A stretch of 64,000 nucleotides of DNA from NCBI GenBank assembly GCA_964621645.1, contig CAZUMH010000003.1, positions 14,485 through 78,484 of the forward strand, written 5' to 3'. The notes under the pieces are model-generated. The model was not told the origin of the DNA, ran no database searches, and worked only from the letters and a program-made list of their open reading frames with translations. This DNA is from an uncultured bacterium. Its GTDB lineage: Bacteria; Zhuqueibacterota; QNDG01; JAGLOF01. This document shows positions 34,708 to 60,878 of the stretch, piece by piece. A program made the position numbers and the translations under genes. The first letter of the stretch is position 1. The number at the start of each line of letters is the position of its first letter.

Positions 34708-34719
34708 CGGTTATTCCTT

Positions 34720-37363: not shown

Positions 37364-37380
37364 AGCTCGCTCCCGCCATC

Positions 37381-39382: not shown

Positions 39383-39389
39383 GGAATGG

Positions 39390-40262: not shown

Positions 40263-40285
40263 CTTTTCCTCGTCTTTTCAGGATG

Positions 40286-44198: not shown

Positions 44199-44228
44199 AC
44201 TCTTTTCCTCTGAAGAATAATTAATTTA

Positions 44229-45911
44229 TTATCGAATCGCTTCGATCATTTCCGTGTAGAGTTGGGGAGCCGTAAACTGTCTCGCCTGAATTGCTCCTGA
44301 CGGACAACTGGCGGCGCAGTTCCCGCACCCCCGGCACACAGCCTCGTTGACCACCGAGATCCCTTTCTCTTCATTAAAAGAGATAGCCCCGTAACAGCAA
44401 ACTTCCAAACAGGTTTGGCACCCGGTGCAGAAAGCCTCTGAAATAACCGCGACTTTGACTTCTGGAACAATCTTTTCTCCTGGAATCAAGCGGGACAGAA
44501 TTTTGCCGCTCGCGGCCTGCGCTTGCAGCATCGCTTCCGAAATCCCCATCGGTCCGTGAGCGGTTCCAATAATATAGACGCCCTCAGTAGAAGTGCCTAC
44601 CGGATTAAGATGATAATGCGCTTCCTGGAAAAAACCTGTCTCGTCCAGGGGAATCGCCAAAATATCCGACAGAGCTTCAGTGTCTTGTGAAGGCTCCATG
44701 GCGGGAGCAAGGATTACCATGTCAGCACTGTCCTCACCCTTGGATCCGTTACTCGCTGTATATACAATAGTGGTGCCCTTAACTCTTGTGTCTAATACGC
44801 GAATAAAATCAATCCCCTGTGCCTTAATGTCTTCATAAAATCGCTGATCATCTTTATGAGGAAGACAGAGGTCTCGATAGTATACCTTTATGGATGTTTC
44901 CGGGTATTGGTCTTTCAAAGATTTGGCAATGTTGATCATATACGTGCAGCATATCCTCGAACAGTACCCTTTCTCGTCCCTTCCAACACAGTGAATTAGT
45001 GCCACGGTTTTGGGCACTTCACCGGGTGTAAAATTTATCGTGCCGTCTTCTGAAATCATTTTTTCGATTTCGAGAGACGTGTATACATTATCTTCTCGCT
45101 TGTATTTGTAGGCAGGCAACCTCGTTGGATCAAGCAGGCCGGACCCAGTCGCCAAGACAATGGCGCCGACTTTCAGCTCCGTGCCGGCCTCTTCATCTTT
45201 TTTATTCTTTACGACTACTTCAAAATTACCGAAAAATCCCACTACTCTCTCAACCTCGGTCTCTGTAAAAACCTGAATATTCTCATTCTTTTCAACATCC
45301 ATGATCTTCTGTGCGACCAGCCCCCAGCTGTCTTGCTGTCGGGGGAGCAGTCTGCTGTAGAACGTTGATTTTCCACCTAAAACTTCGGATTTTTCGATTA
45401 AATAGACGGTCCGCTGTTCGCTGGCAAGTGATAAAGCCGCTTCCAATCCCGCAATGCCACCTCCTATCACCAGCACATCCGGTCTGCTTTCTATCTCCTT
45501 TTCCAATAACTCGGATTGATAGAATACTCTGCGTATACCGGCCCGGATATAACGGGTGGCTTTCTTCGTGGCCTCTATTTTGTCCGGGATAATCCAGGCG
45601 CAATGCTCCCGGATATTCACCATCTTGAAAAGGTATGGATTCATGTCTGTTTTCTTGCACACATTAATAAATGTGGATTCATGATCCCTGGGGGAACAGG
45701 CGGCAACTACCAGATGAGTAATCCCGTTCGCTTTGATCTCTTCTTCAAGAAATTGCTGACCTTCCTTTGAACAGAGCAATTTATGTCGCTTGACAATCAG
45801 TTCGATATCCTCAAATTCCTGAAGGGATGGTATGGTTTTTAAGATAGAATCGATGTCAATATGCTCTGCAATATTGGGTCCGCACTCACATACAAAAACG
45901 CCAATTCTCAT
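44229..45911 (-). CDS. HdrA-like FAD FeS flavoprotein (N-terminal Cys domain + FAD core + C-terminal 2x[4Fe-4S])
   Basis: The N-terminus reads GVFVCECGPNIA. The FAD site is VLVIGGGIAGLEAALSLA. The C-terminus carries CTGCQTCLEVC and CRGCGNCAASCP. Confidence 0.75.
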   Translation of the reverse strand: MRIGVFVCECGPNIAEHIDIDSILKTIPSLQEFEDIELIVKRHKLLCSKEGQQFLEEEIKANGITHLVVAACSPRDHESTFINVCKKTDMNPYLFKMVNIREHCAWIIPDKIEATKKATRYIRAGIRRVFYQSELLEKEIESRPDVLVIGGGIAGLEAALSLASEQRTVYLIEKSEVLGGKSTFYSRLLPRQQDSWGLVAQKIMDVEKNENIQVFTETEVERVVGFFGNFEVVVKNKKDEEAGTELKVGAIVLATGSGLLDPTRLPAYKYKREDNVYTSLEIEKMISEDGTINFTPGEVPKTVALIHCVGRDEKGYCSRICCTYMINIAKSLKDQYPETSIKVYYRDLCLPHKDDQRFYEDIKAQGIDFIRVLDTRVKGTTIVYTASNGSKGEDSADMVILAPAMEPSQDTEALSDILAIPLDETGFFQEAHYHLNPVGTSTEGVYIIGTAHGPMGISEAMLQAQAASGKILSRLIPGEKIVPEVKVAVISEAFCTGCQTCLEVCCYGAISFNEEKGISVVNEAVCRGCGNCAASCPSGAIQARQFTAPQLYTEMIEAIR

Positions 45912-45915
45912 AATA

Positions 45916-47232
45916 CTACTCCTGAATATTACCTTGGGCCGTCTCAGATGGCAAATGACTATTTATTACCGAACCCACAACCGATTCTGCCTGCACCACC
46001 GCACTTTGTGCATCTTTTGGTCCTTCGGCACATCCGGCAACATATATCCCCTCCCTAGAGGTCTTTACCGAGCCCATTGAAGGAGAAGATACCTTGATAA
46101 ATCCATGATCATCCAGCTCGATCCCCATAACCTTCGCTAGATGCGGTGTGCTCTGATCCGGTACTATGGCAACCGCGAGAATGATCATATCTACGGAGAG
46201 TTCTTCATCGATGTCATCATTCTTTTTATAAGAAATGGTAAGACCCGTCCCATTCCCAGTCACTTTGAGATCAGCCGGTTCAGACAGGTAGATGAAATTC
46301 ACATTTTCTTCCTTGACTTTCTTGAAAAATTTCTGGGAAGTTTTGCCCGGCACGCACAAATCGGAATGGAACTCGTAAACTTTTGTTTCCGGTAACTTAT
46401 GTTTGACAAAATGGGCATGTTTTAAGGAACTCAAACAGCAAACTCCTGAACAATAGTGTAATCCCTTGCGTCCCACACAGTGAACAATCGCGACTGATTT
46501 CGGGGATTCACCCCCCCTGAGGGTGAGTTCGCCGGATGTTGGACCGTTTGAAGCGAACAGGCGTTCAAATTCCATGGAGGTATACACTCCCGGGAACTTG
46601 CCATACCCCAGATTTGAAAATTGGCTGACATCGATGATTTCAAAACCGGTGGCAACGATAATCGAACCTGTCTGTATGACTACATCTTCGGCTTTCCCGG
46701 AGAAATCGATAGCGCCAAACATACACGCTTCCTGGCATGCCTGGCAACTCTTCTTTCCATTAAGGTTGAGACAATACCTGGGATCGATAACCGGGACATT
46801 CGGCAAGGCGCCGGCGCACGGCACATAGATCGCCTTCTTATCGGAGAGTTTCTCCTCCCACTCATTTTTCAAGCTCACCGGACATGGCTCATAACACATT
46901 CCGCATCCGATACAAGCTTCGAGGCTCACATATCTTGGTTGTTTGTGAATCGTCACGTTAAAGTTGCCCGCCTCACCCTCCACCTTCTCCACTGAGCCGA
47001 GAGTAATAACATCGATGTCCGAATTCTGTAAAACTGCCTGTTGCACCGGAGCTACCATACACGTTGAACATTCTAAATGGGGAAAACTCTCTTCGTTCTT
47101 AATGATATTCCCGCCGATCAGGGGCAGTTTTTCCACCAAACACACTTTCCTTCCGCTGTTAGCCAGTAGCAGACCTGCCTCCATTCCTGCGATACCGGCT
47201 CCTACAATTAACGCATCATAGGCACTGCTCAT
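45916..47232 (-). CDS. HdrA-like FAD FeS flavoprotein, core-only form (start revised to ATG 47232)
   Basis: The FAD site ALIVGAGIAGMEAGLLLA and an inserted ferredoxin motif CIGCGMCYEPCP are present. The N- and C-terminal domains of canonical HdrA are absent. A GGAAG RBS precedes MSSAYD. Confidence 0.7.
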   Translation of the reverse strand: MSSAYDALIVGAGIAGMEAGLLLANSGRKVCLVEKLPLIGGNIIKNEESFPHLECSTCMVAPVQQAVLQNSDIDVITLGSVEKVEGEAGNFNVTIHKQPRYVSLEACIGCGMCYEPCPVSLKNEWEEKLSDKKAIYVPCAGALPNVPVIDPRYCLNLNGKKSCQACQEACMFGAIDFSGKAEDVVIQTGSIIVATGFEIIDVSQFSNLGYGKFPGVYTSMEFERLFASNGPTSGELTLRGGESPKSVAIVHCVGRKGLHYCSGVCCLSSLKHAHFVKHKLPETKVYEFHSDLCVPGKTSQKFFKKVKEENVNFIYLSEPADLKVTGNGTGLTISYKKNDDIDEELSVDMIILAVAIVPDQSTPHLAKVMGIELDDHGFIKVSSPSMGSVKTSREGIYVAGCAEGPKDAQSAVVQAESVVGSVINSHLPSETAQGNIQE

Positions 47233-47286
47233 TTTGTCTTCCTCAAAAGAAATGAAAAATACATACGACAGGGTGACCAATCTCAG

Positions 47287-47724
47287 CTAATAATACGCGT
47301 TCCGATTTATCGGATTGGGGCCCAGCTTTTTAATCTTTTCCGTAAATTCATTGACGATATCTGCATACCGTTTTCCTTCCGAGGCGGAAACCCATGACAA
47401 TTGCACTCTTCCGGGATCTAATTCCAATGCCTCAAACACACTCTTCAGCATGGCATACCGTCTGCGCGCATAGTAATTCCCTTTGTCATAGTGACAATCA
47501 CCAGGATGACATCCGGCAATTAAAATACCATCGGCTCCCCCAAAAAAGGTGGTTAATACAAGATTGTAATCGACTCTGCTTGAACACATCACACGGATCA
47601 CATTGAAGGATGGTGATATCTCCATCTTGGAAGAACCAGCCAAATCGGCTGCCGCATAGGTACACCAATTACATAAATATCCGACTATTCGAGGGACAAA
47701 CTCCTCTTTTCCGTTGGATTCCAT
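47287..47724 (-). CDS. mvhD: MvhD-type hydrogenase iron-sulfur subunit
   Basis: It has the motif YLCNWCTYAAADLAG. The start is probably Met24 of the track ORF. Confidence 0.8.
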   Translation of the reverse strand: MESNGKEEFVPRIVGYLCNWCTYAAADLAGSSKMEISPSFNVIRVMCSSRVDYNLVLTTFFGGADGILIAGCHPGDCHYDKGNYYARRRYAMLKSVFEALELDPGRVQLSWVSASEGKRYADIVNEFTEKIKKLGPNPINRNAYY

Positions 47725-47836
47725 TTTACCCCCGTATTTATCGCCCCACCGGAAATTCTGAACGAGAAACCGGCCACCCTGGGCTCTTAACAAAATTGTT
47801 GAAATCAGGCATAACTCTTATTATGAGCGTCCTGAT

Positions 47837-48061
47837 CTATATCTGTATCTGTGCCGAATGTTTGCCGTTTCCATCCGTCGTGCACATGAGTAACGTCTTC
47901 CCCATCCTGCCGCACCATGCTTTTATATCACTCGGGAAAGAAGGACAATCCGCCTCAATTTCCAGTGTATCTCCAGGACTTAACTGAGGAAGCAGAGCAA
48001 CAACTTTCAGTATTGGTTGGGGACACTTCAGGCCGAGTGTATCCAATTTATGTACCGCCAT
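47837..48061 (-). CDS. tusA: TusA-family sulfur carrier protein
   Basis: The 74-aa product has the TusA active-site motif LDTLGLKCPQPILK, which fits the CPxP signature. Confidence 0.85.
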   Translation of the reverse strand: MAVHKLDTLGLKCPQPILKVVALLPQLSPGDTLEIEADCPSFPSDIKAWCGRMGKTLLMCTTDGNGKHSAQIQI

Positions 48062-48080
48062 TTTAATCCTCCGATAAAAA

Positions 48081-48440
48081 TTAAAAGGAAAACGTTAATT
48101 GAGCTCCCTGGGCTTCCGCAATAAAGGTGGTGGCTCCGACTACTTCCGTACCTTCGATGAGATCCTTTTCGGTAAAATTATGAACATCAAAGGCCAATTC
48201 ACAGACTAAAAGCCTGCCACCCAAACTGATCAATCCCTTATATAATTCTATGAGATCAGGAAGCGCCGGCGCCGCATCATTCAATTTTTCAAGAGCTCCT
48301 TTTACCATTGAAGGTGCGCCACCCGGGGTAAAAAACAGGATAACCTCATCACTGCTGGCCGCCGCCGATGATCCTAATATAAAAGGTGGATAGACATTTT
48401 TGCCCTCTGCCCCGTTTACGGTAATCGCCACTTTTGCCAT
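48081..48440 (-). CDS. dsrE: DsrE/DsrF/YchN-like family protein
   Basis: The 119-aa product has the DsrE-like fold and a Cys in LLVCELA. It is adjacent to tusA. Confidence 0.6.
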   Translation of the reverse strand: MAKVAITVNGAEGKNVYPPFILGSSAAASSDEVILFFTPGGAPSMVKGALEKLNDAAPALPDLIELYKGLISLGGRLLVCELAFDVHNFTEKDLIEGTEVVGATTFIAEAQGAQLTFSF

Positions 48441-48482
48441 GACTAGTTTCTCCTTACGCTAAAAATTAATATTAGTTTGACC

Positions 48483-49568
48483 TCACAACTGGTCTTTCGG
48501 GGGATAAAGCGCTTCCCATAAAAGATCGAGTACATTCTTTACCTTTAACCTTCCATTTAACTTTTCAGCAGCATTTTTCAGATTCAATTCGCATGTTGGA
48601 CAAAGTGTGACCAGATACTCAGCCCCCGTTTCCAACGCTTGTTTCACCCGTTTTTCAGCTAACCGATCGGCAAGCTCCCTATCTGTCACAAGTAAGCCCC
48701 CACCTCCGCCGCAACATTGTGCTTCCTTGCCATGTGTCGCCATTTCAACTACTTCAGCTCCGATTTCCTTGAGCAACCATCGAGGCTCATCAACCATTTC
48801 CAGGCCCCGTGCCACATTACAGGGATCATGATACGTCACTTTTACATTGAGTTTATGAATTTTATCCCTCTGATTTGAAAGCCTCTCAACGATTTCGTCA
48901 ATGATATACTTCGACTTTAAATCAGGATATTTTTTCTTGATAAAAAACGCACATGTTGTACAGGCACAAATAATTTCCTCATTTGCGTCTGGAATTGTTT
49001 TTCTGAATTTGTCCTGTTGATTCCGAAATCCATTTTTATCACCCAGCACTCCAAACGGCATGCCACAGCATGTTTCATCAAACGTCTTCGGTTTCACCCC
49101 GAGAATCTCAAGAATTTCCAGGTATTTCCCTGCGTCCTCTTTTCTTTCAAGCAACCGACAGCCGAGTAAAACCGTTTTTTCGCCCTGCGATGCAGGCGCT
49201 TCAAGCCGCTTTCCAAATATATTACCGCTTGTTTCAATTTTATCCAAAAGCTGCTTGTGCGAATCGTAGGAATACCCCGCTTCAAATAAATCTGCTCGTG
49301 CTGCGGATAGAATGTCCGGAATCGAAACACCAGCCGAACATCGCTGCACACAATCTTTGCAAAATGTGCATTGAAACATCTTTTCCGCGATATAGGGTGA
49401 CGGCTCCAGATCATCAACGTACAATCCATAAGCGATTACCACCTTACCCCTTGCACCGTCTACTTCCCACCCCAGATCCTTGAATACAGGACATCCTTCA
49501 AAGCAATAGGCACAGCGGATACATCTGTGCAAGTCATTCTTCCATTCGGCGATATTGTCTGTCTGCAT
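48483..49568 (-). CDS. HdrD/GlcF/GlpC-like FeS protein: N-terminal 2x[4Fe-4S] plus two CCG domains
   Basis: The motifs CIRCAYCFEGCP and CTFCKDCVQRC are present. The CCG motifs are ETCCGMPFG and AQCCGGGGG. Confidence 0.75.
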   Translation of the reverse strand: MQTDNIAEWKNDLHRCIRCAYCFEGCPVFKDLGWEVDGARGKVVIAYGLYVDDLEPSPYIAEKMFQCTFCKDCVQRCSAGVSIPDILSAARADLFEAGYSYDSHKQLLDKIETSGNIFGKRLEAPASQGEKTVLLGCRLLERKEDAGKYLEILEILGVKPKTFDETCCGMPFGVLGDKNGFRNQQDKFRKTIPDANEEIICACTTCAFFIKKKYPDLKSKYIIDEIVERLSNQRDKIHKLNVKVTYHDPCNVARGLEMVDEPRWLLKEIGAEVVEMATHGKEAQCCGGGGGLLVTDRELADRLAEKRVKQALETGAEYLVTLCPTCELNLKNAAEKLNGRLKVKNVLDLLWEALYPPKDQL

Positions 49569-49985: not shown

Positions 49986-50516
49986 TTACACCTGTATCTT
50001 CTTTCCGAATTCATAGCCCTCTTCAAATGCCTTCATATTTTTATCAATAAATCTTTCAGGAACGGATTCCGGAATTGTCTTTCTCATCGCTTCCAGGGAG
50101 ACAACTCCTGTTGTGGCCGTTACAAATCCAAGCATCACCACGTTAGCAAAAATTCTATGACCCGTCTGTTCGGCAATCCGGGTTGAAGGTATGGAAAGAA
50201 TTTTCTTTTTTGTGTCGGTCTCCACCAAATCCTCATCGATAATGATCACCCCGTTATCCTTGACTTCTGGTTCAAATTTATTGTATCCCTCCTGAGACAT
50301 TGCTATTAAAAAATCTGTTTTTACGACATAGGGATACAATATTTTTTTATCAGAGACGACAAGCTGCGAGCTGCACGCGCCTCCCCTTGCTTCCGGTCCA
50401 AAGGACTGATTCATTGTGGCGAATCCCTCATCATAAATGGATACTGCCCTTCCTACAATAATCCCTGAACGGATTATTCCCTGCCCTCCGAATCCTGCAA
50501 ATCTCATTTCAGTCAT
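49986..50516 (-). CDS. 2-oxoacid:ferredoxin oxidoreductase gamma subunit
   Basis: The N-terminus FAGFGGQGIIRSGIIVGRA matches the Por/Kor gamma family. Confidence 0.85.
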   Translation of the reverse strand: MTEMRFAGFGGQGIIRSGIIVGRAVSIYDEGFATMNQSFGPEARGGACSSQLVVSDKKILYPYVVKTDFLIAMSQEGYNKFEPEVKDNGVIIIDEDLVETDTKKKILSIPSTRIAEQTGHRIFANVVMLGFVTATTGVVSLEAMRKTIPESVPERFIDKNMKAFEEGYEFGKKIQV

Positions 50517-50541
50517 GTGTAATTTCCCGCTTTATCTTGAG

Positions 50542-51261
50542 TTAAACTTCAATTTTTATGAATTTTTCGCCGATAACATCAGAAAGCTGCTTGTTGTACG
50601 ATTCGATGAATGTCGGTCTCTCCCTCTCAAAAAATTTCCCAAGGATTATTTTTTTATCGCTCTCAATTACGACATCATTAGTATCCGCATCATTGTTTAT
50701 TTCCGAGTGATCGCGGTAGAACTCAAGCAATTCAGGAGGAGGAGAAATCACATCAATGACGGAAAGGCCCGCTTTCTTTAAAGCGTCAGTTATCGAATTT
50801 GCCAATTCATTGGTGTGCAATGGTGTCCATCTGGCCACGTAGACGCTGCCGCAGGACCTTGCCATATGAGGAATATTTAACGGGTTTTCAAACAATAGGT
50901 ACGGCGAAAAAATAATTTGATCGACGTTCCCGGGGGCCTTCTCTTCGTCAACCTCCCGATAGAGAAAGTTATTAACGCAGATCACCATGATATCCATGTT
51001 CCTTCGGCAGGCATGCACAAAATGATTACCCCCCAGTGTTGCCATGTCCCCAATGAACACCACTGGTTTTAACATCGGATTCGATAGCTTCATTCCCGTC
51101 GCAAATGGGATTGCCCTGCCTCTTGATGTATGAAAGAAATCTATGCCCAGATAATCAATGGTATCGGGGCTGTAGGGAATATCCGTGACCATGCATACTC
51201 TTTGTCGCTCTATCCCAGAACTGTCAATTCCTCGATTAAAAGCTTCAATAGTTTTATCCAT
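50542..51261 (-). CDS. 2-oxoacid:ferredoxin oxidoreductase beta subunit (TPP-binding), copy 2
   Basis: The TPP motif GDMATLGGNHFVHACRRNMDIMVICVNN is present. Size is 239 aa. Confidence 0.85.
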   Translation of the reverse strand: MDKTIEAFNRGIDSSGIERQRVCMVTDIPYSPDTIDYLGIDFFHTSRGRAIPFATGMKLSNPMLKPVVFIGDMATLGGNHFVHACRRNMDIMVICVNNFLYREVDEEKAPGNVDQIIFSPYLLFENPLNIPHMARSCGSVYVARWTPLHTNELANSITDALKKAGLSVIDVISPPPELLEFYRDHSEINNDADTNDVVIESDKKIILGKFFERERPTFIESYNKQLSDVIGEKFIKIEV

Positions 51262-51279
51262 TATATCCCTGCCAAATAA

Positions 51280-52572
51280 TTAATGTTTTTCTGCCAGGCT
51301 TCCACCGAAAACCGAACGTTCCAGAGTCGTGGTAAATTCAAAAACTCCCTGATATCGTTTATTTTCGGTGGCTATCTGTTTTATCGCCTTATAAATATCA
51401 TCCGGATTATGAACCGACCCGCCTCCATGGGGAACGAGAATAACATTGGCATTTCCGTGACTGCACCTGTCCACCTCAAAAACAACCTGACCATAGTTGA
51501 TCTCGGGAACCACAAATCCCTTTACTTTTTTAGCAAGTTGAGCTATTCTCTCTTCTGGGAATGGCCAGATTGTGATCAGGCGAAGCGTGCCGACCTTTAA
51601 TCCCTCCGAGCGGGCCTGTTTCACCGCTCTGTAAGCTACCCTGGACGTGATTCCGTATGAGACGACGACAACATCGGCGTCTTCAATATTTTCTTCCTGG
51701 ATTTCGATGATATCATCCCTGTTCTTCCGGATTTTATCAACCAGGAATTGATTCGTCGATTTCTTATGCAGCACTGCAGCCTTTTCTAAATCGGGAAGTG
51801 ATTTTCCGTCCAAAATGGGATGCCCGCTCTCGTCGTGGGTTAATCCGGTGATATAGATCTTATAGCCGTCTCCCGCTTTTACGAGGGCAGGGACAAGATC
51901 TTTATCTCTTTTATATGGTTTGTATTCTTCTTTCGGACCGGTATAAAACCGCCGCGGCTCCAATTCAATTTCAGAAGCCTCTGGAATCACCACCTTCTCC
52001 GTCATATGCCCCACACACTCATCGGCCATCAGCATCACCGGCACACGGTAACGCTCGGCCAGATTAAACGCTTTAATTGCAAACTCAAATCCTTCCTGCG
52101 GGGAATCGGGCGCCAGGGCTATTACTTCATAATCGCCATTGGCACCCCATCTGGACTGCATAATATCCGCCTGTCCGGTATTGGTCGGTACACCGGTGGA
52201 AGGACCGCCCCGCTGAACATTGATAATCACAAAAGGAATCTCCATGGCCGCGCCAAGACCGATATTTTCCATCATGAGGGAATAGCCGGGTCCGGACGTG
52301 ATGGTCATAGATTTTTGTCCTCCCCACGAGGCGCCCAACACAGAAGCGATTGAACCTAGTTCGTCCTCCATTTGGATAAATCTGGCCCCAGCACGAGGCG
52401 CTATTTTCGCAAACGCTTCTGCAGCCTCGGTGGAAGGCGTTATCGGATATCCGCCTAAAAATTTGCACCCGGCAGCGAGGGCGCCGTAAGCCATCGCCAC
52501 ATCGCCATCAATATAATAGATACCCGTTAAAACATCCCGCGGATTTGCTTTCAATCTATGCCTCCCTGTCAA
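51280..52572 (-). CDS. 2-oxoacid:ferredoxin oxidoreductase alpha subunit, copy 2
   Basis: The 430-aa product belongs to the Por/Kor alpha family and is a paralog of 53420-54586. Confidence 0.85.
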   Translation of the reverse strand: MTGRHRLKANPRDVLTGIYYIDGDVAMAYGALAAGCKFLGGYPITPSTEAAEAFAKIAPRAGARFIQMEDELGSIASVLGASWGGQKSMTITSGPGYSLMMENIGLGAAMEIPFVIINVQRGGPSTGVPTNTGQADIMQSRWGANGDYEVIALAPDSPQEGFEFAIKAFNLAERYRVPVMLMADECVGHMTEKVVIPEASEIELEPRRFYTGPKEEYKPYKRDKDLVPALVKAGDGYKIYITGLTHDESGHPILDGKSLPDLEKAAVLHKKSTNQFLVDKIRKNRDDIIEIQEENIEDADVVVVSYGITSRVAYRAVKQARSEGLKVGTLRLITIWPFPEERIAQLAKKVKGFVVPEINYGQVVFEVDRCSHGNANVILVPHGGGSVHNPDDIYKAIKQIATENKRYQGVFEFTTTLERSVFGGSLAEKH

Positions 52573-52581
52573 TCCTGTCCT

Positions 52582-53412
52582 TTATTTCTTCTGCCAACTT
52601 TTCAATGACTCAGAAAACGTGGGCCTCTCTCTGTCAATAAATTTTCCCACGATGATTTCTTTTTGATAATCGATATCCAGATTGTCGGTCGACTCGCCAT
52701 GTCTGATGGTAGAATTTTCATAATAAAATTTCATCATGTCGAGTCCGTCGCCCAACTTGTTGATTCTGGAATAGTACATTGCACACGGTGAAATGACCTC
52801 GACGACGGAAAATCCCGGTCTGTTAAACGCTTCGACGATTGATTCGGCCAATCGGCGCATATGCAGAGCCGTCCATCTTGCCACATAGACCGCACCCGCC
52901 GCCTCGGCCAACCGAGGAATGTTCGCGGGAGCTTCAAAATTTCCGAACGGAGAAGTCGTTGTGTATGCGGGCATGGGTGTGGTGGGAGCCACCTGGCCTC
53001 CCGTCATGGCGTAAATAAAATTATTGACGAGAATGACCGTCAGGTCAATATTCCTTCGTGCCGCGTGAACGAAATGATTTCCGCCGATGGAAACCAGATC
53101 TCCGTCACCCGAAATAACCGCGACCTTCAAGTCTGGATTACCGAGTTTTATCCCTGTCGCAAAGGGAATGGCCCGACCATGGGTTGTGTGAAAAGAATCG
53201 ACTTTAATATATCCCGCGACTCTCCCTGTGCAACCGATTCCGGACACCACGCACAGCTTATCCAAATCAAATTCCAATTTGCTCAACGCTTCGGCGAACG
53301 CGCTGACCGCATTGCCTATCCCGCAGCCGGGACACCATATATGTGGTATCCTGTCCATCCGAAGTAAAGAATCCATCGGATGCGCTTTTTCTTTCAGTTG
53401 GATTGATTCCAT
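52582..53412 (-). CDS. 2-oxoacid:ferredoxin oxidoreductase beta subunit (TPP-binding), copy 1
   Basis: The motifs IPHIWCPGCGIG and GDGDLVSIGGNHFVHAARRN are present. Confidence 0.85.
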   Translation of the reverse strand: MESIQLKEKAHPMDSLLRMDRIPHIWCPGCGIGNAVSAFAEALSKLEFDLDKLCVVSGIGCTGRVAGYIKVDSFHTTHGRAIPFATGIKLGNPDLKVAVISGDGDLVSIGGNHFVHAARRNIDLTVILVNNFIYAMTGGQVAPTTPMPAYTTTSPFGNFEAPANIPRLAEAAGAVYVARWTALHMRRLAESIVEAFNRPGFSVVEVISPCAMYYSRINKLGDGLDMMKFYYENSTIRHGESTDNLDIDYQKEIIVGKFIDRERPTFSESLKSWQKK

Positions 53413-53419
53413 CTTACGC

Positions 53420-54586
53420 CTATTTTTTTACCAGTTTTTTAATTGATTTAAGAATATCGTCCGACTCTCCGATCTTGTCCGATGGATGGTTCAGTGAGTA
53501 AGTCACGGCCTCTCCTCTGCTGCACCGTTCGACTTCAAGAGAGATTTGTCCGAAATTGATTTCAGGGACGATAAAACCATCTATTTTTTTCGCAAGTTCC
53601 GCTATTCTCTTCTCCGCAAAGGGCCAAACCGTAATAAGCCGCAGGTGACCCGCCTTCACACCCTCCTTCCTGGCCTGCTGCACTGCTTCGTGTGCATCCT
53701 TCGACGCAATCCCATATGATACGACGATGACATCTGCGTCCTCTGTCTGGCTCTCTTCTACATCCACTATCTGATCGGTAAACATTCTGATTTTATTCAC
53801 CAGCCGGTGGACATTCCACTCCTGGCATTCGTCGTTCATGACAGGATATCCCCGCTGGTCATGGGTCAGTCCCGTCACATGAAACCGGTATCCCTGGCTG
53901 ATATCGACCATTGGAGGGACAAGATCCTTTTTATCATATGCAAAAGGCAGGTAATTGTCTTTTGCCCCTGTAAAATATTTTCTTTTTTCGACTTTGATAT
54001 CCTTTGGATCCGGGATCTCAACCTCACCTTCCAGTTTTCCGACGCCAACATCTGACATGACCATGACAGGAGTTCGATACTTTTCTGAGAGACTGAAAGC
54101 CCTGACAGTCAAATCGAACATTTCTTGTGGAGAATTTGGAGCGACAGCGATTATCTCATAATCACCATGAGAGCCCCAACGAGCCTGCATGATGTCTCCC
54201 GCTCCCGCGACATTCGGCAGCCCCTCGGAGACACCATCGTGTTGAATATCGACGATGACACACGGAGTTTCAAGCATCACTCCGAGACCAACGTGTTCCA
54301 TCATCTGAGAGAGTCCCGACCCGGATGTTACTGTCATGGATTTCTTCCCCGTCCAAGAGGCTCCCAAAACAGCGGCAAGAGCCGAGATCTCATCCTCCAT
54401 CTGAATAAATATACCATCGACATCTGAGGATCTCTCGATAAACCTCTTCACAATCTCAAAGGAAGGTCTAATGGGATAGTATCCTAAAAACCGGCATCCG
54501 GCTGCTATGGCTCCCTCGGCACAGGCTTGATACCCACTCAGCTGCTGTTTCCCCGTTAATACAGCTTTTAGATCTGCTTTCAACAA
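53420..54586 (-). CDS. 2-oxoacid:ferredoxin oxidoreductase alpha subunit, copy 1
   Basis: The 388-aa product belongs to the Por/Kor alpha family. Confidence 0.85.
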   Translation of the reverse strand: MLKADLKAVLTGKQQLSGYQACAEGAIAAGCRFLGYYPIRPSFEIVKRFIERSSDVDGIFIQMEDEISALAAVLGASWTGKKSMTVTSGSGLSQMMEHVGLGVMLETPCVIVDIQHDGVSEGLPNVAGAGDIMQARWGSHGDYEIIAVAPNSPQEMFDLTVRAFSLSEKYRTPVMVMSDVGVGKLEGEVEIPDPKDIKVEKRKYFTGAKDNYLPFAYDKKDLVPPMVDISQGYRFHVTGLTHDQRGYPVMNDECQEWNVHRLVNKIRMFTDQIVDVEESQTEDADVIVVSYGIASKDAHEAVQQARKEGVKAGHLRLITVWPFAEKRIAELAKKIDGFIVPEINFGQISLEVERCSRGEAVTYSLNHPSDKIGESDDILKSIKKLVKK

Positions 54587-54647
54587 TATCCCCTTTACCT
54601 TAATTTAATATATCTAATAATATAATTCTCTTCATTCCAGTCCATCA

Positions 54648-54956
54648 TCAACTCTCCACGGCTGCCTTTTGGGTTTTTTCCTGCTCTTGTGGTTGTGGTT
54701 TCCCCACTAAAAAGATGGCAAAATCAGGGCATATCATTTGACAAAAACCGCAATCCGCACAACCATCTCCATTGACTATTTCGGGAGGATGATACCCTTT
54801 TGAATTATATCGTTCGGACGTCTCGAGCACATCATTGGGACAATATTCCACACAAAAACCGCATCCCTTGCACCGATCCTCGATGATGACAATCTCTCCA
54901 CAAGGAGTAACAGGTTTGTCAAAGCCGAAAGGTCTTTCTCTGTATCGTATACGCAT
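54648..54956 (-). CDS. 2-oxoacid:ferredoxin oxidoreductase delta subunit (2x[4Fe-4S] ferredoxin)
   Basis: The ferredoxin motifs CKGCGFCVEYCP and CADCGFCQMICP are present. Size is 102 aa. Confidence 0.8.
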   Translation of the reverse strand: MRIRYRERPFGFDKPVTPCGEIVIIEDRCKGCGFCVEYCPNDVLETSERYNSKGYHPPEIVNGDGCADCGFCQMICPDFAIFLVGKPQPQEQEKTQKAAVES

Positions 54957-54977: not shown

Positions 54978-56651
54978 TTACCGCAACGTGCCCACATAAT
55001 TGGTTGTCAATTGTTTCTTTCGAACATCGGGGTTACTGTAATCCGGTAAAATCATGGGAGATACCCGTCCGCCGGTTTTAACCCCTGTCTTATCCAGCTC
55101 ATTATGATATTTCTTCACATGTTCCAAGCTCAGTTTCCCGTCTTTAAATTTATTTTTTATATACTCCGCAGCCGTCACACCGGCTATTCTGCCGAACACC
55201 GTCACATCCAGGAGGGAATTACCCATGAGTCTGTTCTCTCCATGAACTCCTCCGCTGACCTCTCCGCCGACGATAAGGCCGGGCACGATGGTCTCACATT
55301 TACTGTTTATCTCAAGGCCCCCATTCTGGTAATGAAGTGTGGGGAACACCAGCATGGGTTCCTTGGTAATATCGATCCCGTACCTGTGAAAGAGAATCCA
55401 CTTTCCAGGGAACTCCTTGCGCACATACCCTTCTCCTTTAAGGAGGTCAATCATCGGAGAATCCAGCCACACACCGAATTTGCCTGTCGGAGTGGGAATT
55501 CCCTTGTTGCGAACGGTACATTCCCTAATAAAAGCCGAGGCTTCGACATCTCGGGGCTCCCGTTCGTATACAAACTGTTCCCCATCGATGTTGACGACAT
55601 TCGCGCCTGCTCCTCTAAACTTTTCCGTAATCAGCAACCCTTCAGCCTGCTCAGGGAATACGGCTCCAGTGGGATGATACTGCACCGTATGTAAAAATTT
55701 GATGGGAACCCCGGCACGATAGCCGATGATCAAACCATCGCCAGTGGCTCCGTAATGATTGGTCGTCATGAAATCCTGGATATGAAGCCTGCCCGAACCG
55801 CCGGTGGCGATGATGGTGGCCTTTGCTTTTACAATAAGATATTCCTCGGTTTCCAGATTATAGAGAACGGCTCCGGCACAAGCGCCCTTGTCATTCAGGA
55901 TCAACTCTATCGCCGGCGAGAATTCCAGAACCTTGATATCAGCGGGATGATTCCTTGCCTCATCCCGTATCGTCCGCATGATCTCCGCTCCGGTAATATC
56001 TCCCGCGTAGTGCATTCGTTTCCGGGACGTGCCACCGCCGTGAAGCGTCTTGAACCGTCCCTCCTCAGACTTGGAAAACATCGCACCCAGTTTATCAAGC
56101 CACTGCATGACTTTGGGAGCTTCTGTTACAAGAGTCTCGACCAGCTCGGGATCATTCTTAAAGTGCCCCCCACCTATTACATCCAGATAGTGATAATATG
56201 GCGAATCTTTACCACTCTTGGTCGCCGCCTGGATGCCGCCTTCGGCCATCATCGTATTGGCATCGCCATGCCGGAGTTTTGTGGCGATGATCACTTTGAC
56301 TCCCTTCTCCCGCGCCATAAGGGCCGCAGAAGTCCCTGCTCCGCCACCGCCGATAATCAAGACATCCGTTTCAAAATCAGGATTGGAAAGGTCCAGCAGA
56401 TCTGGGTCAATCCTGCTTTTAGCATGCAGAAGGTCGACGATTTCGTTGGAAATCTTGTATCCCTTATTAGGCCCAACCTTAATCTCGGAACGTCCTTCCT
56501 GCTTAAAATCGGGATGATACTTTAATATATCCTCCCTCTCTTCGAGAGACATGGCCGGAAACTCTTTCCCCTGTTTCTTCATTTCCACCCTGGCCGGCCG
56601 CGTCTTCTCCACAACTTTGATTAATTTTTTCAACTCTGGTGTGTATGGCAT
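54978..56651 (-). CDS. Fumarate reductase/succinate dehydrogenase-family FAD flavoprotein with ~90-aa N-terminal extension
   Basis: The FAD site VLIIGGGGAGTSAALMA, the motif AEGGIQAA and the substrate-site motif QYHPTG (FrdA HPT) are present. It lacks a membrane anchor partner. Confidence 0.75.
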   Translation of the reverse strand: MPYTPELKKLIKVVEKTRPARVEMKKQGKEFPAMSLEEREDILKYHPDFKQEGRSEIKVGPNKGYKISNEIVDLLHAKSRIDPDLLDLSNPDFETDVLIIGGGGAGTSAALMAREKGVKVIIATKLRHGDANTMMAEGGIQAATKSGKDSPYYHYLDVIGGGHFKNDPELVETLVTEAPKVMQWLDKLGAMFSKSEEGRFKTLHGGGTSRKRMHYAGDITGAEIMRTIRDEARNHPADIKVLEFSPAIELILNDKGACAGAVLYNLETEEYLIVKAKATIIATGGSGRLHIQDFMTTNHYGATGDGLIIGYRAGVPIKFLHTVQYHPTGAVFPEQAEGLLITEKFRGAGANVVNIDGEQFVYEREPRDVEASAFIRECTVRNKGIPTPTGKFGVWLDSPMIDLLKGEGYVRKEFPGKWILFHRYGIDITKEPMLVFPTLHYQNGGLEINSKCETIVPGLIVGGEVSGGVHGENRLMGNSLLDVTVFGRIAGVTAAEYIKNKFKDGKLSLEHVKKYHNELDKTGVKTGGRVSPMILPDYSNPDVRKKQLTTNYVGTLR

Positions 56652-56689
56652 GATCCCGTCTCCATCAATGTATTCTATAGCCTTGTAAC

Positions 56690-57511
56690 CTATATAACTA
56701 GATGTATCTTTTCTTTGGGCTCCCAGAACTCATCAGCCGTATCGGGTTCGGTTTCCCGCGCGCTGTACACCTTCTTGAGAGCCTCAATGTCCATTTTTTT
56801 CAATTCTTCCAAATCCTTGTTGAACTTTCCCTTCTTTATATTTTCTACGACAGAATCAACATGCTTCGCTCTCGGCGATATGTGTCTTCCGTATAGCCGT
56901 CTCGTCAATATCGCCACATTATACTGAGCCTCCTCGGCCGGACAGCGGGCCGTACATAATCCGCACATGACACAATCGAAGGAAAGCTCGGCAGCTCCCG
57001 CAATGTCTCCCCGAATTGCTTTAGCAATATAATCCATCACATCGATATCCATCGGGCAGCTCCGGGTACAGGTGCCGCAGCCGACACACTTGAAAATTTC
57101 AGGATAAAGCGCCGTCACCGTAGATCCCGTTGGTTCTAATTTCTCGATATCATAGGTAGCTTTGTTGGCCGGGAAAAAGGGGATTTGCGTAATATACATA
57201 TCCGGCTGAACGACTGTCTGGCAGGCCAATCCCACCTCGATGCGGTAAGAATTGGGAAACCGGTACAGTGTTCCACAGGCACCGCATATACCTCCACGGC
57301 AGCCACACCCGCGTATGAGCTGATAGCCGGCATATTCCAATGCTTTCTGTATTGTCAGAGAGGCAGGCACTTGGTATTTCTTGCCCATGACGAATATGGG
57401 TACCATCTCATCTGCTTTTTGAGATGCCTTCTTGGTTGAAGCACTGGAGGGACTCTCCTTTTCTTTACCTTTCTGATTGTTGGGAACGGCGACTTTACTC
57501 ATGGCTGACAC
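56690..57511 (-). CDS. SdhB/FrdB-like iron-sulfur subunit ([2Fe-2S] + 2 ferredoxin-type clusters) with Lys/Ser-rich N-terminal extension
   Basis: The 2Fe-2S motif is CRGGICGACG. The ferredoxin-type motifs are CVGCGTCTRSCP and CVMCGLCTARCP. The first 35 aa are low-complexity and Lys-rich. Confidence 0.7.
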   Translation of the reverse strand: MSAMSKVAVPNNQKGKEKESPSSASTKKASQKADEMVPIFVMGKKYQVPASLTIQKALEYAGYQLIRGCGCRGGICGACGTLYRFPNSYRIEVGLACQTVVQPDMYITQIPFFPANKATYDIEKLEPTGSTVTALYPEIFKCVGCGTCTRSCPMDIDVMDYIAKAIRGDIAGAAELSFDCVMCGLCTARCPAEEAQYNVAILTRRLYGRHISPRAKHVDSVVENIKKGKFNKDLEELKKMDIEALKKVYSARETEPDTADEFWEPKEKIHLVI

Positions 57512-57932
57512 CCTCTTTTGTTAATGCTTTACTATCAAGATTAATTGGACCCAGGGCTCGTATTGTGTCTGCGAATTCGTTCATTACCGTAACAAATTTT
57601 TTCCCTTCAGCCGCAGAAATCCATTCCAATCGGAGACGTTTGCTATCGATTCCAAGATCGTCAAGCATTTTCTTGAAGAGGATTATTCTCCGAAGCGTCT
57701 TATAATTACCTTCAACGTAGTGGCAATCTCCGGGATGACATCCTCCCATGAAAACACCATCAGCGCCCTGTTTGAATGCGTGAAGAATATGCTGCGGGTC
57801 TATCCGGCTGGAACACATAACCCTCAGATTAATTCCATGGGGCATATATTCCATCCGTGACGTACCGGCAAGATCGGCCCCCGCATAGGTACACCACTTG
57901 CAGAGGAAACAGATAATCTTTGGTTCAAACAT
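57495..57932 (-). CDS. mvhD: MvhD-type hydrogenase iron-sulfur subunit
   Basis: It has the motif FLCKWCTYAGADLAG and overlaps the downstream gene by 17 nt. Confidence 0.8.
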   Translation of the reverse strand: MFEPKIICFLCKWCTYAGADLAGTSRMEYMPHGINLRVMCSSRIDPQHILHAFKQGADGVFMGGCHPGDCHYVEGNYKTLRRIILFKKMLDDLGIDSKRLRLEWISAAEGKKFVTVMNEFADTIRALGPINLDSKALTKEGVSHE

Positions 57933-57934
57933 AG

Positions 57935-59905
57935 CTATTCCTTTAACATCACTTTAACCATTGAAAATATTTGATCATCAGTCAAATTGCGCTGCTGAGC
58001 AGCTCCTGAGGGGCAGGCAGCCGCACAGGCTCCACAGCCCTCACAGAGAACTTCGTTGACCGTGACCACTTTTCTTTCTAAATCCAGTGATCTGGCACCG
58101 TATGGACAGACGGCCACGCAGATACCGCATCCGCTGCAGAGCTCTTCGTTCACCGGAACAATCGTCGGTTCATGAAGGAGCACTTCCTGAGCGAACAGAT
58201 CTCCGACCTTGGCTGCAGCCGCTGAAGCTTGAGAGACGGTCTCGGGGATATCCTTGGGGCCGTGGGCGCATCCAGCGAGGTAGAAGCCGGCGTTCAGGCT
58301 CTCGACGGGCCGTAATTTTGGATGGGCCTCCGCCAGCCATCCGTTGGCATCCGTAGAAATCTTAAGCTTTTTTAAGAGACTTTCCACACCCTCGGTCTTT
58401 ACCATGGACATGGCCAGCACGACCATATCGGCCTCCATTTCCACTTTCTTCCCGGTAAGTGTATCCGAACCCCAGACAATCAGTTTGTCTCCCTCTTTGA
58501 TAATCTTGGATACCTTTCCGCGGATATAGAGCACCTCGTCTTCATCGATGGCCCGTTGGTAGAATTCTTCAAAGGCCTTTCCGCCGGTCCGCACGTCGAT
58601 GTAGAATACCGTGGCATTCCCATCGGGCACGCGGTGTTTATAGAGCATTGCATGTTTGGCCGTGTACATACAACAGATCTTACTGCAGTAGGAATTATGA
58701 TTTTCCGGATCCCGGGAGCCGCAACATTGTATGAAGACGACATTCTTCGGCACCTTTCCGTCTGAGGGCCTGCGGACTTCACCTCCAGTCGGTCCGGACG
58801 CGGACAGGATTCGCTCAAATTCCAGGCCATTGAGGACATCTTCGTACTTTTCTCCGCCGTATTCACCCAGAGCCTGCATCGTGTACAGATCATACCCCGT
58901 GGCGACAACAATCGCGCCAACCTCTTCTTCCAGGATCTCCTCGACCGCATCATAATTGATGGCATTCGGTTCACATACCTCTTTGCACTTACCGCACCGG
59001 ACAGGAAGAAGACCGAGACAACTGTCGATGTCCAGGGTGTAGGTTCCGGGAATAGCCTGCGGGAACGGCAGATAAATTGCTTTCCTGAATGAAAGTCCCA
59101 TATTGTATTCATCGGGAACGACTTGCGGGCAAACATCTTCGCAATCTCCGCAAATCGTGCAGACATTCTCATCCACAAAGCGAGGTATCTTTCTGATCTT
59201 GACTTTGAAGTTCCCCACAAATCCGGATACCTCAAGAACTTCGTGGTAGGTCATTACCCGGATATTCGGGTGGCGAGACACTTCCACCATTTTGGGGGTC
59301 ATGATACACTGGGAGCAGTCTAGAGTGGGAAACGTTTCGGAAAGCTGGATCATATGGCCACCGATAGACGGTTCTTTCTCTACCAACAAGACTTCATATC
59401 CATGATCCGCGATATCCAAAGCCGCCTGAATGCCGCTGATTCCGCCACCAATGACCATCGCCCGGCGAGTCACGCCAACACGGATGGGCTCAAGGCTCTC
59501 ATCCTGTTTGGCCTTCTCCACCATGGACTTGACAATCCTGATGGCCTTCTCCGTTGCCATTTCCTTATCGGAATGCACCCAGCTATCCTGTTCACGAATA
59601 TTGGCAATCTCAATCTGATAGGGATTGAGCCCAGCCAGCTCGGCCACGTTTTGAAATGTTTTCTCATGAAGCGTCGGAGAGCAGGCCGCGACAATAATGG
59701 CATCTAATTTCTCTTTCTTGATCGTCTCAAGAATCGTCGTCTGTCCCGGATCCGAACACATATACACATAATGCGTCGAAAAAGCTACTCCCGGGTAGGA
59801 TTCCAGTTCCTTAGCAACCCGCTCAACATCGACGACACTGGAAATATTGACACCACAGTGACAGACAAAAAGACCGATTCGCTTTTTCTTCCCGTTTCCA
59901 TTCAT
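57935..59905 (-). CDS. hdrA: Heterodisulfide reductase subunit A (full-length HdrA)
   Basis: The N-terminus reads GLFVCHCGVNIS. The FAD site is AMVIGGGISGIQAALDIA. An inserted ferredoxin domain and C-terminal motifs CSGCGICVAVCP and CEGCGACAAACP are present. Size is 656 aa. Confidence 0.85.
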   Translation of the reverse strand: MNGNGKKKRIGLFVCHCGVNISSVVDVERVAKELESYPGVAFSTHYVYMCSDPGQTTILETIKKEKLDAIIVAACSPTLHEKTFQNVAELAGLNPYQIEIANIREQDSWVHSDKEMATEKAIRIVKSMVEKAKQDESLEPIRVGVTRRAMVIGGGISGIQAALDIADHGYEVLLVEKEPSIGGHMIQLSETFPTLDCSQCIMTPKMVEVSRHPNIRVMTYHEVLEVSGFVGNFKVKIRKIPRFVDENVCTICGDCEDVCPQVVPDEYNMGLSFRKAIYLPFPQAIPGTYTLDIDSCLGLLPVRCGKCKEVCEPNAINYDAVEEILEEEVGAIVVATGYDLYTMQALGEYGGEKYEDVLNGLEFERILSASGPTGGEVRRPSDGKVPKNVVFIQCCGSRDPENHNSYCSKICCMYTAKHAMLYKHRVPDGNATVFYIDVRTGGKAFEEFYQRAIDEDEVLYIRGKVSKIIKEGDKLIVWGSDTLTGKKVEMEADMVVLAMSMVKTEGVESLLKKLKISTDANGWLAEAHPKLRPVESLNAGFYLAGCAHGPKDIPETVSQASAAAAKVGDLFAQEVLLHEPTIVPVNEELCSGCGICVAVCPYGARSLDLERKVVTVNEVLCEGCGACAAACPSGAAQQRNLTDDQIFSMVKVMLKE

Positions 59906-60834
59906 GACGCAACCTCAGCTTTCGACTCGATTCCCAGTATGGACCGAGGGTCACAATAGTGTTGATCAAATCCTAACATTTTTTCATCGACTCCCAACGC
60001 CCATGCGAGCAATTGAGTAAAGAAAAGAACCGGCATTCCAGTGAAATCAAGAAATTTCTCTTTTATCCTGTCCTGCCTGCGATCTAAATTATAATAACAC
60101 AGGGGGCAACTCAAGGCGACGGCATCAGCCCCATTTAACTTTGCCGAACGAAGTATGTTATATGATGCCTCTGAAGCCGCATCCGGCATCGATATTGACA
60201 GGTACGATCCGCAACATTCCTGCTTGTAGGGAAAATCAATTACATCACACCCAATATTTTGAAGGAACTCTTCGAAAATCGTCGGATCATCAGGTTCATC
60301 GATCCCTACTTCGCCCTTGGGGCGAAGAAGACGACAGCCGTAATAGGGGACGACTTTCAGACCTGAAAGATCCCGTTTGATCAGTGATCGGATTTTTTCA
60401 TACCCCACTTCATTCTTGATAAATTCCAGCAAATGAAGCACCCAGACCGTTCCGTTATACTCTGCAAAACCCGTCGTCTTCTTATTCGTTAACGGATCTA
60501 TTTTAATATCATCATGGAGATAGGCGTTGATACGCTTATGTTTCAAGGGATCTTTCAACAAAGCCTCATTCGTGCGTTTCAGTACGTTGAAACAGAAAGC
60601 GCATACAGTAAAAACCTTGTCTCCTCCCTCTATTTCAACCTGCCTGAGAATGCGAGCCGGTGCTGCCAGACCGATAATCTTCTCCTCATTTAAGGGAAAC
60701 TCGGCCCCGCAACAGGTCCAGTTTTCCGGCTCGACCAACTCGTAGCCCAACGCTTCCATGGCCGCGTAGGTCGACGTATCCAAATTTACGGTCTTCTCTT
60801 TTACGGTACATCCAGGGTAATAATGAATTTTCAT
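59902..60834 (-). CDS. hdrB: Heterodisulfide reductase subunit B (two CCG domains)
   Basis: The motifs YYPGCTV, WTCCGAEF and QECCGSY identify two CCG domains. It overlaps hdrA by 4 nt. Confidence 0.85.
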   Translation of the reverse strand: MKIHYYPGCTVKEKTVNLDTSTYAAMEALGYELVEPENWTCCGAEFPLNEEKIIGLAAPARILRQVEIEGGDKVFTVCAFCFNVLKRTNEALLKDPLKHKRINAYLHDDIKIDPLTNKKTTGFAEYNGTVWVLHLLEFIKNEVGYEKIRSLIKRDLSGLKVVPYYGCRLLRPKGEVGIDEPDDPTIFEEFLQNIGCDVIDFPYKQECCGSYLSISMPDAASEASYNILRSAKLNGADAVALSCPLCYYNLDRRQDRIKEKFLDFTGMPVLFFTQLLAWALGVDEKMLGFDQHYCDPRSILGIESKAEVAS

Positions 60835-60878
60835 GCTCGCTTCTTCCTATTCTGATTTACTCATATAATCAAACAAGA

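Follow-up and report, generated by a model that had tools for sequence, protein, structure and literature searches.

Within a 64,000-nucleotide (nt) stretch of the genome of an uncultured bacterium of the Zhuqueibacterota (contig CAZUMH010000003.1, positions 14,485 to 78,484, forward strand), hereafter referred to as the window, a cluster of six genes for subunits of a 2-oxoacid:ferredoxin oxidoreductase (OFOR) was analyzed. The six OFOR genes all lie on the minus strand in the order delta-alpha1-beta1-alpha2-beta2-gamma and span positions 49986 to 54956. An initial annotation, made from the sequence alone, had described this arrangement as an operon with duplicated alpha and beta subunits, and open reading frames (ORFs) with strong OFOR domain matches were found for all six genes as described. 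The genes, with their Pfam matches and products in amino acids (aa), are the following.

delta, 54648-54956, minus strand: 102 aa; ferredoxin with Fer4_7 and Fer4 matches
alpha1, 53420-54586, minus strand: 388 aa; POR_N (E 5e-54) and PFOR_II (2e-18); apparently non-catalytic alpha paralog
beta1, 52582-53412, minus strand: 276 aa; TPP_enzyme_C (3e-33); canonical subunit for thiamine pyrophosphate (TPP) and a [4Fe-4S] cluster
alpha2, 51280-52572, minus strand: 430 aa; POR_N (9e-65) and PFOR_II (6e-23); canonical catalytic alpha
beta2, 50542-51261, minus strand: 239 aa; TPP_enzyme_C (1.5e-17); apparent pseudo-beta
gamma, 49986-50516, minus strand: 176 aa; OFOR domain III, PF01558 (POR), E 9e-36

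The delta translation contains two CxxCxxCxxxCP motifs and is expected to carry two [4Fe-4S] clusters; its top NCBIfam match was OGOR_delta, under the cut-off of that model. Gamma scored 199.5 bits against PRK08537, under the cut-off of 235, and both alphas were over the cut-off of 411 for PRK08659 (alpha1, 470 bits; alpha2, 509 bits). The six-gene enzyme was assigned, on sequence grounds, to the four-subunit Kor/Oor OFOR family. The sizes given initially for the alphas (388 and 430 aa) and the betas (276 and 239 aa) were reproduced, as was the clear divergence of the paralogs, with pairwise identities of 50% for alpha1/alpha2 and 43% for beta1/beta2. From delta to gamma the genes are separated by 61, 7, 9, 18, and 25 nt, so that the earlier range of 7 to 60 nt was correct at its lower end and one short at its upper end. 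A purine-rich stretch lies 5' of every start codon. In a pattern scan of the operon region, 18 promoter-like matches were obtained versus 16.9 in shuffled sequence, and 12 terminator-like matches versus 11.5. With both counts at shuffle level, the scan shows no internal transcription signals. A split into two operons by internal promoters or terminators, which the initial annotation had named as a possible objection, was rejected on these counts and on the gaps of 7 to 61 nt.

Beta1 was found to be intact. Its four cluster cysteines are all present (C27 and C30 in CPGC, C61 in GIGC, and C210 in SPC) and align with Cys19, Cys22, Cys53, and Cys202 of Helicobacter pylori OorB, which are the ligands of the proximal [4Fe-4S] cluster (PMC12307629). 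The Mg/TPP motif is complete (GDGD at residues 102 to 105, with N130/N131), and the YAMTGGQ loop is also kept. Beta1 has no C-terminal tail, a feature present both in beta2 and in the betas of ordinary four-gene OFOR operons (the proteins of which are referred to below as ordinary alphas and betas).

Beta2 is missing the N-terminal ∼35 residues, including the CxxC, and its alignment to beta1 begins at beta1 residue 35. Relative to beta1, SGIGC was replaced by TDIPY, GDGD by GD, YAMTGGQ by YREVDEE, and SPC by SPP. The same losses were observed across 82 beta2-type sequences, in which the four Cys columns contained 0 to 1% Cys, the first Gly-Asp of GDGD was deleted in 82/82, and the TGGQ loop was gone in 82/82; the Mg-ligand Asn was retained in 59%. 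Similarly, 17 of 17 aligned beta2-type sequences had no cluster cysteines and carried the two-residue deletion. A hidden N-terminus of beta2 was considered and rejected, as the ORF already opens at the earliest start codon that follows the preceding stop, and the alpha2 gene ends 18 nt before this start. Because the truncation is identical in the 82 relatives, it is neither a frameshift nor an annotation artefact. Beta2 is also not a decaying gene, since the beta2-type alignment has 54 invariant columns, two residues have become newly fixed in 82/82 sequences (D27 for the Gly of SGIGC and R47 for the second His of HTTHGR), and the fold model is confident. In that AlphaFold2 model (predicted local distance difference test, 87.2; predicted template modeling score, 0.86) beta2 is predicted to be well folded, and OFOR betas were its top fold matches with Foldseek.

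A search with beta2 returned ∼75 clusters of short beta2-type proteins (238 to 265 aa) at 48 to 80% identity, with ordinary betas (283 to 307 aa) appearing from ∼45% identity downward. In a profile search of 1.84 billion representative proteins, one beta2-type representative was found among the best 150 matches. Independent Cys-less beta lineages were also looked for elsewhere, and the other short matches inspected among these best 150 were truncated ordinary betas. The beta2-type proteins thus far collected look like a single lineage. A 260-aa beta-like protein, P0261, was also encountered, in which the CxxC, GIGC, and fourth Cys are kept and CDND stands for GDGD and MMGNQ for MTGGQ; it may represent a different kind of TPP-defective OFOR beta.

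Among the alphas, alpha2 has the canonical motifs YPITPST (T45), QRGGPSTGVPT (R121, T126, and T130), E71, DECVGHMTEKV, and VPHGGGSVHNP, and the positions of T45 and R121 were 99 to 100% conserved in 130 orthologs. In the Sulfolobus tokodaii enzyme StOFOR, Thr256a of YPITP and Arg344a are the ligands of the substrate carboxylate, and mutating either one abolishes activity or strongly impairs it; GDG and Asn118b bind Mg2+, and Glu294a activates TPP (PMC5020499). The motifs of the own site of alpha1 are degenerate, with YPIRPSF in which R40 replaces the Thr, and QHDGVSEGLPN in place of QRGGPSTGxPT, in which H116 replaces the Arg. At least 13 different residues occupied the Thr-equivalent position in 128 alpha1 orthologs, Thr itself being present in 4%. 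In matched samples (alpha1, n = 128; alpha2, n = 130; ordinary alphas, n = 65), the motifs YPITPST, QRGGPSTGxPT, DECVGHMTEKV, and VPHGGxSVHxP had an entropy of 0.01 to 0.51 bits in alpha2 and a mean entropy of 1.0 to 2.3 bits in alpha1. Such variability in alpha1 reads as the signature of lost constraint and not of a new specificity.

The YPIRP of alpha1 in the window also occurs in the oxalate oxidoreductase of Moorella thermoacetica (MtOOR) (PMC5020499). An oxalate oxidoreductase-like alpha1 was nevertheless rejected, and the shared motif was judged coincidental, on the hypervariability of the position in orthologs and on scores far under cut-off with the NCBIfam oxalate oxidoreductase models (alpha1, 57 bits, and the other alpha, 47 bits, versus a cut-off of 500; beta, 32 bits versus 590). 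Alpha2 has, in addition, a conserved, family-specific C-terminal extension, with 40 residues past the HNP motif versus 12 in ordinary alphas. A further insertion of ∼11 to 18 residues was noted at alpha2 residues ∼255 to 272 (about 51757-51810), with the sequence …SLPDLEKAAVLHKKSTNQF…; it occurs in alpha2 of the window and of the loci L082, L086, L087, and L090, and it is not present in other alpha2 orthologs, in alpha1, or in ordinary alphas.

The degeneration therefore appeared crosswise, with alpha1 and beta2 damaged and beta1 and alpha2, which are adjacent in mid-operon, intact. The initial annotation had suggested an alignment of TPP and substrate residues and had reasoned that their loss in one pair would make that pair a pseudo-paralog. 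The residues proved intact in beta1 and alpha2 and lost in beta2 and alpha1, so that the loss fell on alpha1 of the first pair and beta2 of the second. Its proposal of one degenerate pair was thus borne out as to the existence of degenerate subunits but not as to their distribution.

Rates of change followed the same division. The reference positions counted were those with at least 95% conservation among 65 ordinary alphas (147 positions) or among 63 ordinary betas (109 positions), taken from the four-gene loci L006 to L080 and from L084. Alpha2 retained 121 to 123 of 147 positions and alpha1 87 of 147; beta1 retained 93 of 109 and beta2 37 of 109. The ranking did not change with counts from one common set of nine loci. 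Orthologs shared with the window proteins an identity of 74 to 89% for beta1, 66 to 82% for alpha2, 57 to 70% for alpha1, and 48 to 69% for beta2. In neighbor-joining trees, the alpha1, beta1, alpha2, and beta2 families were each monophyletic with bootstrap values of 93 to 100%, and root depth was 0.855 for beta2 versus 0.381 for beta1 and 0.545 for alpha1 versus 0.432 for alpha2. Ordinary alphas were always closer to alpha2 than to alpha1, and ordinary betas always closer to beta1 than to beta2. Of the searches with alpha1 and alpha2, each returned only its own type among its best 120 matches.

Twelve other loci were examined (L001 to L005, L082, L084, and L086 to L090, with L085 being a second copy of L084), and a scan of genome contigs gave at least five beta2-type loci. 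The order alpha1-beta1-alpha2-beta2-gamma was present in 12/12 of the other loci, as far as each contig extends, despite rearranged surroundings. Delta precedes alpha1 except in L002, where it lies 3' of gamma, and in L088 a CBS-domain gene stands between delta and alpha1. Recurring in every other locus examined, the six-gene arrangement is far beyond chance. The loci are labeled WOR-3, Cloacimonadota, Phycisphaerae, or "bacterium," and annotations of homologs further include KSB1, Planctomycetes, Armatimonadetes, and Stahlbacteria. One of the loci comes from a 2.85-Mb WOR-3 record (CP070664.1), in which beta2 is likewise Cys-less and beta1 canonical. In L084/L085, an ordinary, distant delta-alpha-beta-gamma operon (positions 2648-5551 of the locus; ∼41% and ∼49% identical to alpha2 and beta1, respectively) was observed directly upstream of the six-gene operon. 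Ordinary and six-gene OFOR types can therefore share one genome.

The conserved segments of alpha1 bear on how the subunits would be combined. The loop HVTGLTHDxRGYP is 95 to 100% conserved at most positions in alpha1 and relaxed in alpha2 (Thr 36%, Tyr 65%), and WGSHGDYE shows the same reversal, being invariant in alpha1 and relaxed in alpha2. By our reading of the alignment, the former corresponds to the StOFOR segment that holds Asp468a'. In StOFOR, this residue is supplied by the opposite protomer, lines the substrate pocket, and is required for 2-oxoglutarate turnover, and the C-terminal tail of beta reaches over the other protomer (PMC5020499). Judged by the reciprocal conservation of the loops and the mapping of Asp468a', the live alpha2/beta1 site would receive the loop of alpha1, and the dead site that of alpha2. 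Alpha1 itself would face beta2, since lost constraint is expected only where alpha1 always meets a dead site.

It therefore seems probable, though by no means certain, that the six genes encode one asymmetric alpha1-beta1-alpha2-beta2(-gamma-delta) OFOR with a live site at alpha2/beta1 and a dead pseudo-site at alpha1/beta2. We infer the co-assembly, the alpha-beta pairing, and the stoichiometry. The heterotetrameric alpha1-beta1-alpha2-beta2 enzyme that the initial annotation had listed as one option would then be half of the answer, combined with its option of a degenerate partner. In this arrangement, a symmetric dimer of alpha-beta protomers of the Kor/Oor type would have become a pseudo-symmetric alpha1-beta1-alpha2-beta2 core. 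Alpha2 would give the substrate-binding and TPP-activating residues, and beta1 the Mg-TPP site and the TGGQ loop as well as the proximal [4Fe-4S] cluster; the two subunits would form the sole catalytic site, from which electrons would pass by way of the beta1 cluster to the pair of clusters in delta. Alpha1 and beta2 would fill the place of the second protomer as a pseudo-site with no cluster, with Mg/TPP ligands lost, and with substrate residues unconstrained. Alpha1 would contribute the loop lining the substrate pocket of the partner protomer, and beta2 the C-terminal arm clasping that partner, and both would be kept since the live site needs them to complete the live protomer. There is possibly one delta and one gamma per core. 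A symmetric dimer with two equivalent active sites is not expected for the six-gene OFOR.

Several observations weigh against this interpretation. Alpha1 retains QMEDE, including E66, the equivalent of the TPP-activating Glu294a, in 128/128 sequences. This conservation is unexplained by a fully dead, empty pseudo-site, and it would also fit an alpha1 facing TPP; the motif may be structural at an alpha-alpha interface, a remnant of inter-site communication, or the sign of a still-bound cofactor. Beta2, similarly, retains an invariant Gly-Asp and GGNH, so that some cofactor binding in the alpha1/beta2 pseudo-site is conceivable. The partner loop was mapped through a single published residue, Asp468a', of a distantly related archaeal enzyme, and the beta1 sample is small (n = 9). 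In the best neighbor-joining tree, finally, the paralogs are sisters, as after a single duplication, with a bootstrap of only 25 to 30%.

Other explanations of the six genes were weighed against the same data. One of them is that alpha2 and beta1, which are fully canonical and adjacent, form an ordinary (alpha2-beta1-gamma-delta)2 OFOR with the single delta and single gamma, like the products of ordinary operons, and that alpha1 and beta2 form a separate non-catalytic complex serving in regulation, as an Hdr/Tfr scaffold, or as an assembly factor. In such an enzyme, however, the partner loop of alpha2 would line the live site, yet it is this copy that is relaxed and the alpha1 copy that is invariant. 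Likewise, the partner-clasping C-terminal arm is lost in beta1 and kept in beta2, and the four genes stay strictly together across phyla with or without nearby Hdr genes (e.g., in L089). This explanation is therefore considered unlikely.

Quite unlikely, too, is a catalytic alpha1-beta1 protomer of altered substrate specificity with alpha2-beta2 as an accessory non-redox partner. The adjacency of the two genes (7-nt gap), the TPP-activating Glu motif QMEDE in 128/128 alpha1 sequences, and the YPIRP that the window alpha1 has in common with the Moorella oxalate oxidoreductase would agree with this pairing. The Thr-equivalent position, however, holds at least 13 residues across orthologs with no new conserved specificity, and alpha1 reached 57 bits against the cut-off of 500 for the oxalate oxidoreductase alpha model. 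The pairing would also leave YPITPST and RGGPSTGxPT of alpha2 conserved without reason, facing a cluster-less site with damaged TPP ligands, and the reciprocal conservation of the partner loops fits the opposite pairing.

Two independent cores, alpha1-beta1 and alpha2-beta2, with different 2-oxoacid specificities and a common delta and gamma, had been proposed in the initial annotation, and both pairs do match OFOR alpha and beta families; this proposal fails almost entirely, since beta2-type sequences (n = 82) are without cluster cysteines, the first Gly-Asp, and TGGQ, so that alpha2-beta2, lacking cluster cysteines and Mg/TPP ligands in beta2, is no OFOR core, and alpha1 is without the essential Thr of YPITP. 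That alpha1 and beta2 are functionless, decaying relics of a tandem duplication would account for their faster evolution and lost catalytic residues, but it is scarcely credible given intact ORFs of constant length in metagenome-assembled genomes (MAGs) labeled as several phyla, 54 invariant beta2 columns with new residues fixed in 82/82, segments with 100% conservation in alpha1, and a fold predicted with confidence.

The closest solved relative of the six-gene OFOR is H. pylori OorDABC (PDB 8YS5/8YS6; PMC12307629), which is made of the same families of subunits on the same delta-alpha-beta-gamma logic. It contained the best solved match of beta1 (OorB, E 6e-64) and was second best for both alphas. 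In OorDABC, TPP is bound where alpha meets beta, and alpha and beta also form the dimer interface (PMC12307629). Four genes encode OorDABC, in which two four-subunit protomers make up a symmetric dimer, whereas the operon described here has six genes, with two diverged paralogs for each alpha and beta place; one alpha and one beta would be non-catalytic, leaving one active site per core. S. tokodaii StOFOR1/2 (PDB 5B46-5B48; PMC5020499), the top Foldseek match of the beta2 model, has the same core fold but consists of two kinds of subunit, as (ab)2, the gamma part being fused to alpha and delta being absent; its protomers are identical and both active. The closest relatives in sequence are ordinary four-gene operons (L006 to L080, in MAGs labeled Ignavibacteria, KSB1, Acidobacteriota, Bacteroidota, and others), in which the betas are 56 to 70% identical to beta1 and the alphas 51 to 65% identical to alpha2. 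These operons differ in that each encodes just one alpha and one beta, with the full set of catalytic residues; the alpha is without the C-terminal extension, and the beta retains its tail.

In hetero-oligomers, a duplicated subunit may lose catalysis and be retained for completing the active site of its partner or for assembly, which is the pseudoenzyme principle. The seven OFOR structures matched in the PDB are all described as assemblies of identical protomers, each with only one type of alpha and of beta or else with a single chain. A full-text literature search found no description of duplicated or non-catalytic OFOR subunits, and one Cloacimonadota preprint handles the kor genes as an ordinary enzyme. 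The proposed asymmetric arrangement, seen in several uncultured bacterial phyla, has no counterpart in the papers found.

OFORs are central to anaerobic carbon metabolism and to CO2 fixation by the reverse tricarboxylic acid (TCA) cycle. Alternating-sites reactivity between the two sites has been proposed for thiamine enzymes (PMC5020499). If the proposed architecture is true, it would be a natural family in which one site has long been disabled and the dead subunits are under selection. It would allow tests of the need for a second site, of the input of the partner protomer to the live site, and of the transition from a homo-oligomer to an obligate hetero-oligomer, and would be of use to enzymologists as a natural test of half-of-the-sites behavior in thiamine enzymes. 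The annotation of uncultured anaerobes is affected as well. Because the naming sources label all these proteins as ordinary "korA/korB" or "2-oxoacid oxidoreductase" subunits, reconstructions from WOR-3, Cloacimonadota, KSB1, and related MAGs may count two enzymes for one.

The operon had also been placed downstream of an Hdr/Frd operon, and this placement was confirmed: a TfrA-like gene lies 21 nt upstream of delta on the same strand, preceded by HdrABC/MvhD. This Hdr/Tfr block (54978-61298) consists of the following genes.

TfrA-like fumarate reductase flavoprotein, 54978-56651, minus strand: directly upstream of delta, 21-nt gap
Fe-S (iron-sulfur) protein, 56690-57511, minus strand: 273 aa
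MvhD, 57495-57932, minus strand
HdrA, 57935-59905, minus strand
HdrB, 59902-60834, minus strand
HdrC, 60879-61298, minus strand

The block is probably co-transcribed with the OFOR genes. Here, a bacterial soluble fumarate reductase-like enzyme is combined, on the level of the operon, with an HdrABC/MvhD module and with an OFOR, and it may function in electron-bifurcating fumarate reduction. L082, L086, and L087 likewise carry the block immediately upstream of delta; in L088 it is nearby and rearranged. In L089 (WOR-3), the six OFOR genes occur without Hdr, and the asymmetric core would therefore be independent of the Hdr context. In L089 (14909-16122) and L084 (11604-13556), a GltD/NfnB-like flavoprotein gene (Fer4_20 plus Pyr_redox_2) follows gamma, with no Tfr block; linkage of the OFOR to a flavoprotein electron acceptor is thus recurrent. 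A more elaborate and rather doubtful possibility is that the OFOR is the ferredoxin-side module of a supercomplex, in which the pseudo-protomer and the alpha2 tail would serve as a docking surface through which the one active site is connected, via delta, to the HdrABC-MvhD-FeS-TfrA-like complex, coupling fumarate reduction with flavin-based electron bifurcation to ferredoxin-dependent interconversion of succinyl-CoA and 2-oxoglutarate. A gene for a HEAT/PBS-lyase repeat protein (∼10 repeats, 610 aa; 61306-63138, minus strand) lies directly upstream of HdrC, as it also does in L082 and L087.

On the other side of the OFOR genes, two further clusters were recognized.

TCA supercluster, 29145-41443, minus strand: fumarase, isocitrate dehydrogenase, aconitase, citrate synthase, 2x[4Fe-4S] protein, GlcD-like oxidase linked to flavin adenine dinucleotide (FAD), SucD, SucC
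second Hdr-like cluster, 41945-49568, minus strand: two Fer4_8 proteins (364 and 388 aa), two HdrA-like flavoproteins (560 and 454 aa), MvhD (168 aa)

Counting the OFOR and Frd-like genes, nearly a whole TCA cycle, perhaps a reversible one, is present within ∼30 kb. Among the other loci, sucCD comes after gamma in L086, L087, and L090; linked genes also include fumarase in L086 and L088 and malate dehydrogenase in L088. The most likely substrate pair is 2-oxoglutarate/succinyl-CoA, in line with the role suggested in the initial annotation, because of the sucCD, fumarase, malate dehydrogenase, and Frd-like neighbors and because the closest solved relative is OorDABC; substrate and direction are inferred here, and none of the NCBIfam models specific for 2-oxoglutarate (alpha, beta, or delta) reached its cut-off.

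The second Hdr-like cluster also holds genes for TusA (74 aa), a DsrE-like protein (119 aa), and an HdrD-like CCG protein (361 aa), and its content suggests sulfur-carrier-linked redox chemistry. An ArsR-type regulator stands between it and the OFOR genes in the window, and the same set recurs downstream of gamma in L082 and L087. Farther along the minus strand, at 20541-27819, genes for NuoF-like (599 aa), GltD/NfnB-like (480 aa), and [FeFe]-hydrogenase-like (419 aa) proteins are possibly a bifurcating hydrogenase or an NADH-ferredoxin module. The window also contains a full-length transfer-messenger RNA gene at 3684-4038 on the minus strand (Rfam RF00023, 177.6 bits).

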